A DNA stretch of 64,000 bases, taken from an uncultured Clostridia bacterium. GTDB taxonomy: Bacteria; Bacillota; Clostridia; Christensenellales; UBA1242. Position 1 is the stretch's first letter. Every line of letters starts with the position of its first letter. This document shows positions 7,026-63,754 of the stretch, piece after piece. The stretch covers positions 12,957 to 76,956 of the forward strand of contig CANSRZ010000006.1 in the NCBI GenBank assembly GCA_947649575.1. The letters are read 5' to 3'. Below the pieces are notes generated by a model, which saw nothing but the letters and a program-made list of their open reading frames with translations, ran no database searches and was not told the DNA's origin. The position numbers and the translations under genes are program-made.

Positions 7026-7111
7026 GAAGAGTTAATCCACTCTTCTTTTTTTGTAACAAATAAAAATTAAAAAGAAATTTGTCATTATCACTTTAAATTT
7101 AAAAAGTTTTG

Positions 7112-7120
7112 TGCTAAAAT
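7112..7120 (+). promoter_or_regulatory. Extended -10 promoter (TGCTAAAAT) placed 6 nt before the ATG; candidate leaderless transcript
   Basis: TG-C-TAAAAT at 7112-7120 and ATG at 7127, with no Shine-Dalgarno sequence between them. Confidence 0.5.
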
Positions 7121-7126
7121 ATTGCC

Positions 7127-7909
7127 ATGCGAGTTGTTAATCTAGCCTCAGGCAGTGACGGAAACTTAACATATATTGAAACTGATAACAGCAAGATTTT
7201 GCTGGATATGGGTCTGTCATGCACTGAAACAACCAAGAGATTGGAGCTGTTGAATGTTAGTCCTGGTGATATAGATGCTATTCTTGTCACTCATCAACAC
7301 TCAGATCACATAAAAGGTCTTGATGTGTTTTCATCTAAGTATAATGTCCCAATTTATTCTCATCGAGAAATTTGGGATGGCTTAGATGAAAAGTTGAATA
7401 AAGTTAGTTTAAGAAACAGGAAAGCATTTGACGGCGATTTTGAGTTTAAAGATTTGACTATTATGCCATTTGAAGTGCCTCATGATGTTAAATGTTTTGC
7501 GTTCTCATTTTTGAACGATGGCAGAAAAGTTAGTGTAATGACTGACCTTGGTCATGTTAATGATGTGATTTTAAGCAAGATTGAGCATAGCCAACTTGTT
7601 TATCTTGAAGCAAATTATGACAAGCAAATGTTGATGAATGGTGATAAATATCCACTTACTCTAAAAAGAAGAATTGCAGGTCCAAGAGGGCATTTGTCAA
7701 ATGACGATAGTGCGTCAGTTGCAAAATTTTTAACTCAAACTGGCACAAGACAAATTGTTTTATCCCATGTTAGCAAAGAGAATAATACTCCATCGCTAGC
7801 CTATGAGTACATATGTGAAAAACTTTATCAAGAGGGAATTGAAGAGGGGAAAGGTGTTAAAATTGATGTCGCTTCCCCTCGTCCAGGAGCAATTTTTAAG
7901 TTAAAATAG
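7127..7909 (+). CDS. MBL-fold metallo-hydrolase (YycJ/WalJ-like)
   Basis: HQHSDH metal-binding motif and the N-terminal LASGSDGN signature of the beta-lactamase fold. Confidence 0.75.
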   Translation: MRVVNLASGSDGNLTYIETDNSKILLDMGLSCTETTKRLELLNVSPGDIDAILVTHQHSDHIKGLDVFSSKYNVPIYSHREIWDGLDEKLNKVSLRNRKAFDGDFEFKDLTIMPFEVPHDVKCFAFSFLNDGRKVSVMTDLGHVNDVILSKIEHSQLVYLEANYDKQMLMNGDKYPLTLKRRIAGPRGHLSNDDSASVAKFLTQTGTRQIVLSHVSKENNTPSLAYEYICEKLYQEGIEEGKGVKIDVASPRPGAIFKLK

Positions 7910-58917: not shown

Positions 58918-60232
58918 ATGTTTAATTTTAGAGGAAAGATTCAAAAACTTGCAAAATAAATTAAGTAACTATTTGCAAAAATTGCAAGATAACGCAAATG
59001 TTTTTGTTTTAGTATCCAATGAATATGATAACGATAATTGCATTACTTATAGTTTTTTAGATTCCATTAATTTATGCATAAAAAATGGATTGCAATATAT
59101 TAATACGATTATAGTCCCAGTAGAAAAATCTTGCAAATTTGATAATGTAAAATATATATTATGGTTTTCAAAAGATAAAAATAATCTTATCTTTGATAAA
59201 GATTCTATAAGAGAAAAATCAATATGGAAAGATGTTGAATGGGGGAAAAGAGAAAAGAACTATAATCCTAAAGGCAAAGATCCTGGGAATGTTTGGATTC
59301 CCACAAATGATGATGGGAACGGACATATTACAGAGCATATTTTAATGACACAACAACAAGTCATTAATAGAATACAAAAGATGTCTAATGCTACACAAGT
59401 AGAGACCATTGTAGATTTGAATCCTATTAAAAACACAATAAAAATTTCAAATGATAACGTTCATAATATAGAAACAGATGTTAGAACAAAGTATGAAGTT
59501 ATATTTGACAGCTCTGAAAATATGAAACCTATAAAGGATAATAGCGTTTCATTGGTTGTAACCTCTCCACCTTATTGGGATTTAAAGAACTACTTTAAGA
59601 GTGGCCAAATTGGACAAGAAAGTTATGATAAATATTTAGAGAGAATGAAAAATGTATGGAAAGAGTGCTCACGAATTCTCAAAGATGATGGGTCTATTTG
59701 GATTAACATAAACATCAGAGTAAAAGATAATTATCCCATTTTAATTCCTTATGATTATGTTAATCAATTTAAAAATTTAGGGCTATTCTTGAAACAAATT
59801 TTTATCTGGCATAAATCCTCTGGAATACCAACAGGTGCAAAAAACATCGTTGATAGACATGAATATGTGCTTGTTTTTACCAAAGACAAACACACAACAA
59901 TAACTGTTGGAAGGTATAACGATTATAAAAATCCTAAAATTAACGAAACAAATATTTGGAATATTAATCGTAAAGCAGGAAGTGTCGGCAAAAAATATAT
60001 TCATCCAGCAATATATCCTACAGAACTTACTAATAGAATTATCAATGATATGACTCAACCTGGTGATATGGTATGTGATCCATTTCTAGGAAGTGGGACA
60101 ACACTTATCAGTTGCTTAAAGTTAAAAAGATCCTTTGTTGGATTTGAATATAATGAAGGCTTTAAAGATTTGATAATTAGTCGAATAAATAGTGATACTT
60201 CAAACAATATAAAAGATGTAAAATTTGTTTAA
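58907..60232 (+). CDS. DNA methyltransferase, beta class, M2, with an about 200-aa N-terminal extension
   Basis: VVTSPPYWD then DPFLGSGTT in the C-terminal half. It overlaps the M1 stop by 11 nt (alternative TTG at 58898). Confidence 0.8.
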   Translation: MGIKCLILEERFKNLQNKLSNYLQKLQDNANVFVLVSNEYDNDNCITYSFLDSINLCIKNGLQYINTIIVPVEKSCKFDNVKYILWFSKDKNNLIFDKDSIREKSIWKDVEWGKREKNYNPKGKDPGNVWIPTNDDGNGHITEHILMTQQQVINRIQKMSNATQVETIVDLNPIKNTIKISNDNVHNIETDVRTKYEVIFDSSENMKPIKDNSVSLVVTSPPYWDLKNYFKSGQIGQESYDKYLERMKNVWKECSRILKDDGSIWININIRVKDNYPILIPYDYVNQFKNLGLFLKQIFIWHKSSGIPTGAKNIVDRHEYVLVFTKDKHTTITVGRYNDYKNPKINETNIWNINRKAGSVGKKYIHPAIYPTELTNRIINDMTQPGDMVCDPFLGSGTTLISCLKLKRSFVGFEYNEGFKDLIISRINSDTSNNIKDVKFV

Positions 60233-60258
60233 GAACGGAATGAAATCCGTTCTTTTTG
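60233..60258 (+). terminator. Intrinsic terminator of the R-M operon
   Basis: GAACGGA-ATGAAA-TCCGTTC followed by a T-run. Confidence 0.75.
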
Positions 60259-60272
60259 TTTATAAAAACAAT

Positions 60273-60529
60273 TGTCATAATTGTCACAAATGTCACAAAT
60301 GTCATAAATGTCATAAACAGATATTCTATATAAAGGGATTTTATTGTCATTCGTCATTATTGTCATTTTTGTGACAAATGACAATTGTGACAATTAATTT
60401 TAATAAAAATCATCTGTCATTCCTGTCATTGCTGTCACTACTGTCATAAAATTGTAAATTCCTATACTAACAAATTTTCCTGTCATCTGTCATTACTGTC
60501 ATTTTGTGACGGATATGACAGGAGTGACA
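60273..60529. repeat. Field of 21 TGTCAY hexamers in four clusters (two 9-bp-phased direct arrays; two 3-direct plus 3-inverted palindromic sets)
   Basis: Direct 9-bp-phased copies at 60273/82/91/300/309 and 60415/24/33/42. Palindromic sets at 60345-60392 and 60481-60529. Confidence 0.85.
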
Positions 60530-60654
60530 GAAAATTTTATATAAACAAAAGTTTTGAATCTCGGTCGAAACCGAGATTTTTTATTTTTATATTTTTTGTT
60601 GGTGGCCAATATTGGTCGCTATTTTTTACATTTTTCAACAAAAAATTCTTCCTG

Positions 60655-60885
60655 CGTTGTCAATTGTTGACAACGGTGAAATCTTAAAATTAATTTGAAA
60701 ATTTTTGAGGGTTTGTCAAATGGTGACAATCCCTAACTGCTAAAATCATCGTGTAACCATAGAAAAGTGCTAAAAATTTTTCTGGAGTTGTCAAATGCTG
60801 ACAACTCCAAAACGCTAAAATGCTTTCATAAAAAGTTGCAAAAATTTTAAAAAACTTTTTAGGTGTATCAAATGCTGATACACCT
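60655..60885. repeat. Four spaced inverted repeats built on a TGTCA/TGACA core, three of them followed by N5-GCTAAAAT
   Basis: Hairpins at 60655-60675, 60709-60733, 60784-60808 and 60861-60885. The arms differ between copies but stay complementary. Confidence 0.8.
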
Positions 60886-61013
60886 GATGCGCTAAAATAG
60901 CATTAAACCATGAGTTTGGTTTTACCGAAGGACTGCAGCCTTCGTTAAAATATAATCGAAGTTAAGAACTGATCAATCTTAACCGAAGTGCAAAATTTTA
61001 AAAAGGAGTAAAT

Positions 61014-61688
61014 ATGAGAGAATACATCTTTGATTTTGATCAAAAAACAATGATGGACTTAGATCTATCTACAGAGGAGGCTTTACTATTAGATTATTTA
61101 GTGAAGTTCTTTGACAGTGGATGCGCGGTTTCGAGGAATATTAACGGAAGGAAATTTTGTTGGATAACTTACAAGAAAATACTTTCCGACTTGCCTGTAT
61201 TAAGAAAACGCGAACGTCAAACACGAAGGATAATTGTCGGATTAGAGAATAAAGGACTTATTAAAAGATACTTGGAAAACAAAAATCGCTTATTCATTTA
61301 TATCGACCAAGAGATTTTATTTTACGGTTATGACGGTAGTCCATGTCTGTCCCACGACAACCTTACGGACTTATATAGCCTACCTCTCGGACAAAATGTT
61401 CCGCCAATAGTGAGATATTATAAAAATAAAATTAAAATATTAACTAGAAACGCGCGCGTGAAGGATTTGGATAAAAACGAGTTCTTGTTAAGGTTAAAAC
61501 AAAAGATTAAACCGCAAATAAGCGAGTATGCTTTTAATACTCACTTCAAGAATGCTGAAGTTGATTCGATATCGGACAAGCTGATACTGCTTTCAGTCAC
61601 AGCTGCGAGCGAGTTTAAGAATAGGCCAAATAATCCATTCGAGATAATAGTTAAAGAGATTATTGATGAAATGGTTGCTCAGTTATAG
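61014..61688 (+). CDS. Winged-helix DNA-binding protein, candidate replication initiator/organizer
   Basis: AAGGAG RBS. LLLDYL...W-x-TYKKILSDLP...RRIIVGLENKGLIKR pattern resembles wHTH replication proteins. It is flanked by repeat fields on both sides. Confidence 0.4.
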   Translation: MREYIFDFDQKTMMDLDLSTEEALLLDYLVKFFDSGCAVSRNINGRKFCWITYKKILSDLPVLRKRERQTRRIIVGLENKGLIKRYLENKNRLFIYIDQEILFYGYDGSPCLSHDNLTDLYSLPLGQNVPPIVRYYKNKIKILTRNARVKDLDKNEFLLRLKQKIKPQISEYAFNTHFKNAEVDSISDKLILLSVTAASEFKNRPNNPFEIIVKEIIDEMVAQL

Positions 61689-61760
61689 CCAAGGGGGATC
61701 TAAATCTCTACGAGTTTCGCTTTTACGAGCGGGCGCGGAAACACGCGTGAATTTTCGCGA

Positions 61761-61927
61761 AATCAAAAATCAAAAGCTAAAAACGGAAATTGCCCCAAAT
61801 TAAAGGAATTTTAAGGTTTTTACCGGAAAAGTTTGATAAAAAATCAAAATAAAAATCAAAATAAAAATCAAAATAAAAATCAAAAAATAATCAAAATAAA
61901 TCAAATTTCAAAGAAAATCAAATAAAC
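61761..61927. repeat. AT-rich AATCAAA(A)T iterons, including 3.5 exact 12-bp tandem units
   Basis: AATCAAAATAAA repeats from 61842, with further degenerate copies on both sides. Confidence 0.8.
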
Positions 61928-62133
61928 GCGCTGTGTGGCGAGTTTTGGATTTGGTTGATAAATTGCTCAAGAAAGTTATTTTCTCGCAAATGCCGCGCTA
62001 TTTAGGGCAAATGCCGGCATAGTTTGAATTGAAATAAATTATTTGAAAGTAACTTGACTTATTTTTAGATTAGAGGTAACTTACCTGCTAACCTATAAAC
62101 AGGTCTTTACGGTTACACCACAGGAGGTTGTTT

Positions 62134-62352
62134 ATGGGAAGAATTAGGACTATCGCAGAAACATTACAAATGCTAAAGAAAGAAGATCCAAGCACTAGGC
62201 TATCGGAGTTCTTGATCAGAAAACTTGCTAACAATTACAAAATCCGTTCTATCAAAACGGGAAACAAGTTGCTAATAGATTACGATTCGCTGGTGGCATT
62301 TCTTCAAAGCAAAAATTATGAACTGCCGATGGAACAAATTATTGTAGATTAG
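62134..62352 (+). CDS. xis: Excisionase-type helix-turn-helix protein
   Basis: AGGAGG lies 6 nt before the ATG. It is a small protein directly upstream of the integrase, with a Tn916-Xis-like pattern (IRTIAET...LSEFLIRKLA...KTGNKLLIDYDSL). Confidence 0.65.
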   Translation: MGRIRTIAETLQMLKKEDPSTRLSEFLIRKLANNYKIRSIKTGNKLLIDYDSLVAFLQSKNYELPMEQIIVD

Positions 62353-62359
62353 GAGGTGT

Positions 62360-63754
62360 ATGATGGCGTGTATCAGAAGAATAGTGTTACAAGATGGCAA
62401 CATTTCTTACAAGATTCAAGCAAAGGCAAAAAACGAATTGACTGGAAAATTTGAAACCAAGACAATAACTTGGCGCAAACCACCAGAGATTAACGAAAAG
62501 CAATGTCAAAGAGAATTGCAAAGAGTTGCCTTTGAATTTGATGATAAGTTTAGAAAGCAGATGAGCGGTTTATTGGCTATCGATAACGACATTACTTTTA
62601 TGGAGTATGCGCGCAAGTGGACAGAACGAATTAAGATTACAGAGTCGCTGAACTATTATGTGCGCAGTCTTGATTCGCTTAAGAAGTTTGAAGATTACTT
62701 TGGGTAAGTTAAGCTAAAAAATATAACGCCTACAATGGTGCAAGGCTTTATTAATAAACTTAGTTGCACGCCATCAAAACGCCATTCTGCAAAATTAAAA
62801 ATAGATTTAGATCAATTTATAAAATCGCACTTTGCAACGCAAAGCGAAGTATGTAAAAATAGCGGAGTCTCTAGGTCAATCTTTTACTCTGCTAAGAGCG
62901 GACATAACATAACTATTGAAAATGCGAAAATGATTAGCGAGGCTTTGGGTGCGAAGTTTAATGACATATTTGAAGTTGTTGAAGATTGCCATCCCTATGC
63001 AAAAGAAACAATTTCAAAGCACAAAAGAACTTTGCATACCATATTGGCCAATGCAAAGCGTGAAAGATTGATTGAACACAACTTTGCGTCAAAAGATTAT
63101 ATACTCCCTATTCGAGGGGAAAAGAAGGAAGTTAGAATTCTTAATGACGTAGAGGCAAAGCAACTTGTTAAAGCGCTGGAAAATGAACAAAATTATCAAT
63201 GGAAGTATTCTTTATTGATCTCAATATTTATAGGTATCAGGCGCGGCGAACTTGCGGGACTTCAATGGGAAGATATTGACTTTGACAGTAAAACAATGAC
63301 AATCGCGAGGTCTGTGCAAGACATCCCTAAATATGGACTTATTATCAAAGATCCAAAGACAGAAACGTCAAAGCGTGTATTGTCAATGCCAGATAAGTTG
63401 GTTGATTATTTAAAGGAATATAAAATTTGGTGGGATAAACGCAAAAATTACTTCGGTGATAGATGGAAAGATACAAAGATGCTATTTTGCAATGAAAATG
63501 GCAAACTTATAAGTCCTGGACTCTTTAGAGTTTGGTTGCAGAAGATATTATTTCGTGAAGGCTTGCCGATAGTGACTCTGCACTCTATTCGCCACACAAA
63601 TATTACTCTTCAATTAATGGCTGGCGTGGATATGAAAACCGTATCAGTCCGCGCCGGACATGCCCGCGCAAGCACAACATCGGATTTCTATAGCCATTTT
63701 ATAAAGAACTCCGATATTCATGCAAGCGAGATTATAAATAAAATTTTTGAATAA
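62360..63754 (+). pseudogene. int: Tyrosine integrase (Tn916-like architecture) interrupted by an in-frame TAA at 62705-62707
   Basis: Both ORFs (62360-62707 and 62735-63754) are in the same frame, and the translation reads ...EDYFG*VKLKNITPTMVQGF... across the stop. Catalytic motifs RRGEL, HSIRHT, GHARAST and Y (DFYSHF) are present. Confidence 0.7.

Follow-up and report, generated by a model that had tools for sequence, protein, structure and literature searches.

The replication origins of staphylococcal pathogenicity islands (SaPIs) consist of 6-12 penta- or hexanucleotide iterons, which lie just downstream of rep in opposed orientations around an AT-rich centre and are read by the winged-helix domain of a self-loading Rep helicase (PMC9371898). 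In RepA_N replicons, the iterons are semi-palindromic sites that converge on a poly-A/T tract (PMC7145576). In P4, a small integrative element with type 1 iterons and the primase-helicase alpha, the annotated crr locus begins right after the terminator of the alpha gene and is made of two 120-bp repeats in tandem, each carrying TGTTCAC boxes, two of them direct and 9 bp apart and others inverted. Here, we analysed a 257-bp field of TGTCAY boxes in the metagenome-assembled genome of an uncultured gut Clostridia bacterium (Christensenellales; assembly GCA_947649575.1). It is located in a stretch of 64,000 nucleotides of contig CANSRZ010000006.1, hereafter the window, which was analysed as a whole. 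The field occupies the replication region of an ~11.4-kb island that is bounded by two tRNA-Arg(CCT) 3' halves (~54299-54343 and ~65731-65775, the latter beyond the window end), and lies upstream of an initiator-like gene, rep. The reading that we favour, with a probability of roughly 40%, is that it represents an origin- or crr-type iteron field serving as a loading platform for an oligomeric initiator, as its sequence and the analogy to the above systems suggest.

The box density of this field is exceptional. Counting both orientations, positions 60273-60529 (257 bp) contain 21 boxes, as an initial annotation made from the sequence had reported; our recount confirmed this number, with 19 boxes being exact TGTCAY and two being CGTCAY (CGTCAT at 60352 and GTGACG at 60506), which are gained by allowing C at box position 1. 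The genome-wide background is 0.97 TGTCAY boxes/kb, corresponding to ~0.25 expected per 257 bp, and the next densest 260-bp intervals in the whole 1.09-Mb genome (34-36% GC) hold 4 boxes; no TGTCAY clusters were found elsewhere in this genome. Across the 64-kb window, TGTCAY occurs 82 times versus 56 +/- 7 in dinucleotide-preserving shuffles, of which 0/100 reached 82. The spacing between boxes inside the arrays is 9 bp in 13 cases, 7 bp in three and 10 bp in one, and Tandem Repeats Finder also recovered 9-bp periods in the field.

The field is a duplicated module of ~137 bp (Table 1). Module 1 consists of array A, an AT-rich core and array B, and module 2 of array C, a second core and array D. 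The initially described runs of five (60273-60314) and four (60415-60447) direct copies exactly 9 bp apart, which are arrays A and C, were both found. Arrays B (60345-60392) and D (60481-60529), described as symmetric sets, do contain three direct and three inverted copies each; however, their linear spacer order is 2,4,[5-8],2,4, which is not mirror-symmetric, and thus they are not true palindromes. The opposed sets within B and D abut over a 5-6-bp T-tract (box spacings of 7, 9, 10, 7 and 9 bp in B and of 7, 9, 9, 9 and 9 bp in D), and the AT-rich cores sit between A and B and between C and D. Terminator-like hairpins were found on both sides (60231-60254 and 60556-60579), and therefore the field is bracketed as the initial annotation stated. 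With 21 hexamer boxes in two modules, it comprises six or more iterons of 5-8 bp, and it also consists of contiguous short repeats, direct and inverted, as a centromere would.

Related loci were gathered via Rep homologues, 24 of them in the genomes of other species (in a collection holding one genome per species) and further ones from metagenomes. These islands share a backbone in the order of left-end genes, variable defence cargo, a GAACGG/CCGTTC terminator at the cargo stop codon, box modules, a terminator, 2-11 hairpin units, a CGAAGG palindrome promoter, rep, AATCAAA repeats, xis and int. The cargo adjoining the arrays is always made of restriction or defence genes, and the GAACGG/CCGTTC stem, kept in all related islands, marks the junction between cargo and backbone. 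Box modules are present upstream of rep in 16 of the 26 loci having enough upstream sequence; two more loci carry a minimal module with one box per side of the core, one (L143) retains a partial module, and seven have none, so that the number of modules per island ranges from 0 to 4. The array that the initial annotation had suggested seeking in related elements is therefore conserved in homologous islands. The exact pattern of three direct plus three inverted boxes was absent from 400 other genomes of the same order.

What varies among these islands is the box itself. TGTCAY boxes are found in the window's island, L122-L125 and L127. L122 and L123 additionally carry TGTCC/GGACA and TAGTGTnA/TnACACTA modules, so three box types stand beside a single rep; L126 has TAGTGT boxes only, all boxes of L135 are GGTGGCAC, and islands whose Rep is 36% identical have aaGGTGTCACAC boxes. 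Taking TGTCAY, TGTCC, TAGTGTnA, GGTGTCACAC and GGTGGCAC together, all copies in both orientations change in concert. The scaffold around the switching boxes stays constant, namely the core ATAWATAAAGGGWTTTTA, the spacers 2,4,[T-tract],2,4 and the flanking terminators. The core 1 consensus is retained even where Rep is just 36% identical, the right-hand terminator is conserved at the equivalent place in distant islands, and in those distant islands the opposed box sets do flank the AT-rich core. Between strains, array A also occurs with four copies, via a 9-bp deletion, and core 2 with a 15-bp deletion at 60449, both indels being found in L121 and run X28. Because all box copies in both orientations change together, these data point to a sequence-specific protein as the reader of the field; the conserved spacer order, not being palindromic, favours reading by proteins and makes a hairpin unlikely.

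The same design occurs in phages. A scan of IMG/VR for three TGTCAY boxes at 9 bp that are followed, after a gap of 30-60 bp, by two inverted copies matched at least 39 phage contigs (37-71% GC). In most of them the arrangement is fully symmetric, an AT-rich or (CG)n spacer separating three direct boxes from three inverted ones. Among the 20 flanking proteins tested, 13 were primase/helicases (five VapE, three D5_N/Prim-Pol/DUF5906, one Toprim and four AAA_25), four were small terminases with the array upstream, and three had no Pfam match. In all 13 primase/helicase cases, the array is either inside the 3' end of the gene or 60-160 bp past it. Pairs of GGTGTCACAC boxes were also found in 39 contigs, where some arrays flank AT-rich stretches by Prim-Pol genes and others lie inside an O-like initiator gene. 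The signature of three TGTCAC boxes at 9 bp, a spacer and three inverted boxes thus marks origins by VapE, D5 and AAA_25 genes in phages of many phyla, and could serve the annotation of phage origins. When compared directly, the field had no match in annotated phages and one chance 34-bp match only in annotated plasmids.

Compared with P4 crr/ori, the field likewise forms two tandem modules (~137 bp versus 120 bp) right after a terminator, in which a T-rich spacer accompanies short boxes, some direct and spaced by 9 bp and others inverted; like P4, the island is a small integrative element and has int, an excisionase-type regulator and a hotspot of defence genes. In contrast to this locus, which has a methyltransferase gene upstream, P4 encodes the reader alpha and has crr 3' of the alpha gene. 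Moreover, the box differs by one base, and the field has more boxes per module, with abutting opposed sets. With the SaPI ori it shares short iterons and an iteron sequence that varies between islands, and it resembles this origin in part in its AT-rich segments and its opposed iterons, of which the SaPI ori has at least two per side (PMC9371898). However, the SaPI ori is immediately 3' of the rep helicase gene and has its AT-rich region between the opposed sets, whereas the field lies upstream of a helicase-less RepA_N-like Rep and its box type does not track Rep. Because no cognate helicase gene was found upstream, in the island or, with the VapE model, in the genome, we do not file the field as a member of the SaPI/P4 class; it would work like that class but as an orphan. 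The initial annotation had placed it among plasmid or phage centromere-like sites and iteron origins. Its assignment to arrays that bind many copies of a protein holds, but the nearest matches are short-iteron origins of phages and satellites, not plasmid centromeres, and an origin-type reading is favoured over a centromere.

In such an origin, each TGTCAY box would be the core of a TGT-S-ACA half-palindrome and would bind one protomer of a DNA-binding protein that oligomerises. With a register of 9 bp (and 7 bp), neighbouring protomers would be arranged head to tail on arrays A and C, while the three direct and three inverted boxes of B and D would bring two oligomers head to head over the T-tract. 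DNA distortion or melting would most likely occur at the conserved AT-rich core ATAWATAAAGGGWTTTTA, which separates the arrays, and two such modules lie in tandem, as in P4 crr. The flanking terminators would keep the field clear of transcription, as expected for a structural cis-acting site, and the whole would form the loading site of a ring-forming initiator. As the island has no such helicase, the most likely supplier would be an infecting or helper phage acting in trans, a proposal that we make tentatively. A phage reader could bring about amplification of the island, hitch-hiking, or titration of the phage initiator; it would also explain why boxes and island proteins do not covary, why modules are stacked and lost, and why the field is at the edge of a defence-gene hotspot.

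Several observations weigh against this origin reading. The gene upstream of the field encodes a methyltransferase, no helicase or primase gene is found in the island, and none in the genome by the VapE model. The opposed arrays of SaPI origins and of the phage contigs flank an AT-rich region and follow a helicase gene, whereas the opposed sets here abut. Neither the exact 3+3 pattern nor the island-type module of core plus boxes was found in IMG/VR phage contigs, one phage family has the same arrays upstream of terS, which would suit a packaging role, and promoter-like hexamers overlap the boxes, as would suit an operator. Downstream of rep, a family-wide set of AATCAAA iterons offers an alternative origin for Rep. 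Furthermore, in islands of at least three species (L130, L136 and L144; the collection includes a single genome for each species), Rep is 91-97% identical to that of array-bearing islands and the hairpin units are intact, yet there are no arrays. With a near-identical Rep in these array-less islands, the field is dispensable for island persistence, as far as genome comparison can tell.

A more far-reaching and doubtful extension is that the box modules are orphan mimics of phage origins, carried by small defence islands of reduced-genome gut Clostridia. A self-loading initiator-helicase of a phage would then load on the modules, which would amplify the island, thereby raising the dosage of its defence genes and aiding its spread, and would titrate the phage initiator; an arms race with phages would explain the concerted box switches, the stacked modules (0-4 per island) and the lack of an island protein that tracks the boxes. 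This would be a natural counterpart of the laboratory phage-encoded resistance (PER) effect. To our knowledge, no natural island uses the PER mechanism, and almost no mobile-element biology is known for bacteria with ~1-Mb genomes like these. In PER, observed with cloned lactococcal phage origins, a phage origin in trans titrates phage replication factors and gives resistance (PMC8965321). The islands described here resemble PER in being defence islands with orphan phage-type iteron modules, but PER is a laboratory construct. If a phage initiator reads the field, these islands would represent minimal satellites or decoys of a new kind, which sense or exploit phage replication via swappable origin modules.

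The strongest rival to a phage-supplied initiator is the island's own RepA_N-like Rep, which would read the boxes of a second origin or of a dispensable copy-control locus, the latter titrating or handcuffing Rep like P1 incA or F incC; we consider this possible but rather unlikely. Rep is the only recognisable initiator of the island. Its N-terminus matches PHROG 428 (replication initiation protein; E = 5.8e-9), and its AlphaFold model, built from 18 homologues (pLDDT 87), shows two winged-helix-like halves, for which Foldseek returned the RepA_N N-terminal domains 4pql, 4pt7 and 5kbj as the best matches (probability 0.99, with a weak E of ~0.03). Rep is a plausible initiator because of this PHROG match and the RepA_N-like predicted fold; no Pfam (RepA_N included) or NCBIfam match was obtained, and Rep, the 118-aa left-end protein and Xis gave nothing significant against PDB sequences. 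The predicted N-terminal fold resembles that of initiators of RepA_N replicons such as pSK41, pTZ2162 and the PLE of Vibrio cholerae; the last is a satellite and shows that, even where such an initiator is present, an element can rely on the replication proteins of a phage. The poly-A tracts on which RepA_N iterons converge (PMC7145576) have their like in the centres of arrays B and D (TGTCAtttttgTGACA). In addition, the predicted recognition helix has four residues, E67, R68, Q69 and R71, that are conserved across the family and most islands have a TGTCAC core, the dispensability of the field suits a control locus, and a TGTCA-N5-TGACA pair is also present in three of the four hairpin units next to rep. 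If Rep does read the field, one scaffold with five box specificities would be a natural system for studying the evolution of iteron specificity.

The boxes, however, do not follow Rep. L135 (boxes GGTGGCAC) and L137 (boxes GGTGTCAC) are 98% identical in Rep, 97% in Xis and about 97% in Int, and a comparison with 9-12 other islands showed no non-conservative residue unique to L135 in any of these proteins; against 12 islands with GGTGTCAC boxes or none, the unique residues of its Rep are just the conservative I43, plus I213. Likewise, L122 and L123 stack TGTCA, TGTCC and TAGTGT modules by one rep, and the Rep of L126 is no more diverged than others despite TAGTGT-only boxes. As the left-end proteins are also near-unchanged in array-less islands, box type appears independent of Rep, Xis, Int and the left-end proteins. 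This case against Rep is only suggestive, because the sole difference between GGTGTCAC and GGTGGCAC is the middle base of a GTG-N-CAC palindrome. Classical RepA_N origins also differ from the field in lying inside rep and having longer tandem iterons. Of the binders proposed by the initial annotation, the winged-helix protein encoded at 61014-61688, which is Rep, is predicted to fold like a RepA_N-type initiator, but it does not covary with the boxes and is near-identical in array-less islands. The C protein is not supported, being variable cargo that is missing from other TGTCAY-bearing islands, and the L135 comparison speaks against Xis.

Better candidates for Rep's own sites lie on either side of its gene, namely the AATCAAA repeats 3' of rep and the CGAAGG palindrome 5' of it, because both are shared by all family members, array-less islands included. 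The AATCAAA iterons contain no TGTCAY boxes and, judging from this distribution, are likely Rep's primary origin, for which they are a better candidate than the box field. The palindrome element is likely the rep promoter/operator and is a candidate site of Rep autoregulation. Just 3' of rep, a conserved GC-rich block (GAGCGGGCGCGG...CGCG) precedes the AATCAAAATAAA iterons (61842-61900, and 61760-61775). The palindrome CGAAGGACTGCAGCCTTCG lies between -35-like and TAAAAT elements (60921-60990), is near-invariant even where Rep is 36% identical, and is followed by two more CGAAGT boxes upstream of rep.

Other candidate readers were rejected. A host global regulator is unlikely because the boxes cluster nowhere else in this genome, and GGTGTCACAC is almost confined to the island array in four other host genomes. 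The field is not a C-protein operator either, as a different palindrome lies upstream of the C gene and other TGTCAY islands have no C gene. A T5orf172-like cargo protein co-varies with the boxes in L135, L137 and L142, but it cannot be the general reader because it is absent from this genome. This protein (219-228 aa) has a conserved GIY-YIG/T5orf172-like N-terminus and a variable C-terminus, and is 97% identical between L137 and L142, which have the same boxes, and 52-54% identical in L135, which has variant boxes. Its gene is the first rightward one after the left-end genes in L161 (L135 island) and L162 (L137 island), and occupies 2037-2723 in L142.

A centromere-like partition site or global operator, of the kind read by omega, ParR, ParG or pAD1 RepC with one small dimeric protein per 7-9-bp unit, is improbable. 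Arrays of ribbon-helix-helix proteins (pSM19035 omega heptads, parH/ParG, parC/ParR and pAD1 TAGTARRR/RepC) do resemble the field in having dense, contiguous 7-9-bp direct and inverted units near a replication gene. One dimer is bound per unit in such arrays, which comprise the omega heptads, the 8-bp ParG boxes and the 8-bp TAGTARRR iterons beside repA in pAD1. Diversification of the boxes would suit the avoidance of incompatibility among islands stacked at one tRNA, and the field is insulated from transcription. However, these systems encode the binder and a partition NTPase beside the array, and neither was found in this island. The initial annotation had seen no ParA or ParB gene nearby, and our scans agree: ParA, ParB, ParM, TubZ and ribbon-helix-helix genes were all absent from the island, and ORF (open reading frame) clustering of 26 loci found no ParA, ParM, TubZ or small ribbon-helix-helix genes in its relatives. 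Among the small proteins, the conserved c11, c14 and c15 are acidic or helical and near-unchanged in array-less islands, an integrated element has little need of partition, and with no box clusters elsewhere in the host genomes there is no host regulon hinting at a host-encoded binder.

Slightly less credit goes to an operator over back-to-back promoters, which would make short or antisense RNAs under a repressor. The promoters beneath the 3+3 sets would be a leftward one, with a -35 ATGACA 17 bp before TAAAAT, and a rightward one, with a -35 ATGACA 17 bp before TATATA or TATATT. The region contains 24 promoter-like sites versus 10.8 +/- 3.8 expected, several of them on boxes, and both geometries recur, by inspection, in most TGTCA modules of the relatives. 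Such matches are nevertheless expected by construction, because TGACA resembles the -35 consensus. The leftward -10 of distant islands is TAAAAC, their boxes do not resemble a -35, and the terminator right after the rightward promoter would leave an RNA of ~35 nt that is only a hairpin. The only runs labelled as RNA contained short contigs of relatives, with no usable transcript signal.

A pac-type packaging site, which the small terminase of a helper phage would recognise to enable transduction of the island, is less probable again. In one phage family (L205, L210, L211 and L223), the opposed TGTCAC arrays are immediately followed by a Terminase_2 gene, and ORF scans found neither transfer nor capsid genes in the island. 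Nonetheless, the phage examples are mostly beside helicases (13/20) rather than terS (4/20), the terS-linked arrays have a long A/T-run spacer not seen in this field, no terS was found among the island ORFs, and terS-linked arrays occur only in unrelated phage contigs. More broadly, this terS-type family (L205, L209, L210, L211, L223, L224, L229-L231 and L234) has three TGTCAC boxes, the long A/T-run spacer and inverted boxes directly upstream of the Terminase_2 gene, an arrangement that could be a pac site or a genome-end origin.

Neutral low-complexity expansion by replication slippage, which the initial annotation had linked to an unconserved array, fits the shift of strain copy number by whole 9-bp units but is ruled out for practical purposes, because the box copies switch in concert in both orientations, and the architecture, with its spacer pattern and core, is conserved where Rep is only 36% identical.

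Four structural or cargo-related explanations were also discarded. The 3+3 sets fold as single-stranded DNA (z = -3.6 and -5.0), but a hairpin or cruciform does not account for a spacer order that is not mirror-symmetric or for the direct arrays, which are unfolded. Array A could be read as a coding repeat, (Cys-His-Lys)n, in an ORF at 60225-60374; the relatives have no start codon or ribosome-binding site there, and the inverted copies make coding implausible. The frame, reading N-C-H-N-C-H-K-C-H-K-C-H-K-C-H-K, is a by-product of the 9-bp TGTCAYAAA unit. The boxes are not arm-type sites of the integrase, since no TGTCAY boxes occur near the island ends and the field is >3 kb from either end. 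Finally, they are not recognition sites of the restriction-modification (R-M) cargo, as TGTCAY boxes are common to islands whose type I, II and III cargo is unrelated.

Table 1 Features of the box field and of the adjoining replication and integration region (window coordinates)
Feature	Position	Strand	Remark
Intrinsic terminator	60231..60254	+	Directly 3' of the stop codon of the second methyltransferase gene
Array A	60273..60314	+	Five direct TGTCAY exactly 9 bp apart; unit TGTCAYAAA
AT-rich core 1	60315..60344	unstranded	..TCTATATAAAGGGATTTTAT
Array B	60345..60392	unstranded	Direct TGTCAT, CGTCAT, TGTCAT and inverted GTGACA, ATGACA, GTGACA, converging on TTTTTG
Array C	60415..60447	+	Four direct TGTCAY 9 bp apart; begins module 2
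AT-rich core 2	60448..60480	unstranded	..CCTATACTAACAAATTTTCC; paralogue of core 1
Array D	60481..60529	unstranded	Three direct and three inverted boxes (one GTGACG), converging on TTTTG
Two terminator-like hairpins	60556..60621	+	60556-60579 and 60600-60621; close the field at right
Four hairpin units	60655..60890	+	Variable complementary arms, constant centre, then TGnTAAAAT
Promoter-like element	60921..60950	+	Palindrome CGAAGG-N6-CCTTCG, then TAAAAT; near-invariant family-wide
rep (initiator-like, 224 aa)	61014..61688	+	Two winged-helix-like halves; N-terminal half resembles RepA_N initiators
12-bp AATCAAAATAAA iterons	61842..61900	+	AATCAAA repeats downstream of rep
xis (excisionase-like gene)	62128-62352	+	
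Tyrosine integrase gene, two pieces	62360-62707 + 62735-63754	+	Embedded XRE-type helix-turn-helix (HTH)

The remainder of the island is organised as follows. At the left end, a 122-aa ORF is followed by two small leftward genes encoding proteins of 118 aa (PHROG 21303) and 80 aa; the structural model of the 118-aa protein (pLDDT 58) was too poor to use. The R-M cargo operon, encoding a C protein, an HNH endonuclease and two methyltransferases, precedes the TGTCAY field, after which come the four hairpin units, the palindrome promoter, rep, the AATCAAAATAAA repeats, the excisionase-like gene and the tyrosine integrase gene. Pfam, PHROGs and NCBIfam scans of the island ORFs found no partition, helicase, primase, terminase or relaxase gene, and a search with the VapE model found no VapE-like gene in the genome. 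The integrase is broken by a single in-frame TAA at 62705-62707, and the homologues of relatives are intact (463-466 aa); because of this stop, the island copy may be immobile. Three diverged tRNA-Arg(CCT) 3' halves (53968-54343; window-equivalent 65731-65775) and an intact tRNA-Arg (70643-70719) are present, and thus at least two or three elements are stacked at one tRNA site. The element nearest the tRNA (65776-70642) is unrelated and carries a KAP-like NTPase, an XRE repressor and its own xis/int.

The (CG)n element of the phage spacers also adjoins the TAGTGT module in L122, L123 and L126. Alternating purine-pyrimidine stretches, (CG)n/(CA)n, of 20-30 bp lie beside or inside opposed arrays in L122 (~7200-7225) and L126 (~7560-7580), as well as in the phage loci L214, L219, L221, L232, L235, L236 and L238, which have VapE-type origins. 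These stretches may be an easily distorted or Z-DNA-prone element.

The hairpin units between the field and rep have a CAAATGGTG-like constant centre, with an extended -10 (TGnTAAAAT) 8-10 nt further on, and their outer arms TTCCCG/CGGGA are conserved in distant islands. Relatives have 2 to 11 such units, and L135, L137 and L142 carry theirs at about 7100-7850. A further module, absent from the window, was observed in L122, L123, L124, L126 and L127 (about 300-450 bp upstream of rep), L128 and L134. It consists of 2-3 short direct repeats that differ by island (GAGAAC, TGAACGA, GGGCAAAA or GAGACA), followed by a strong promoter (..GCCGTATAATATAAG..) and then ~45 nt ending in a terminator. The module may represent a gene for a small RNA whose operator boxes are switchable.

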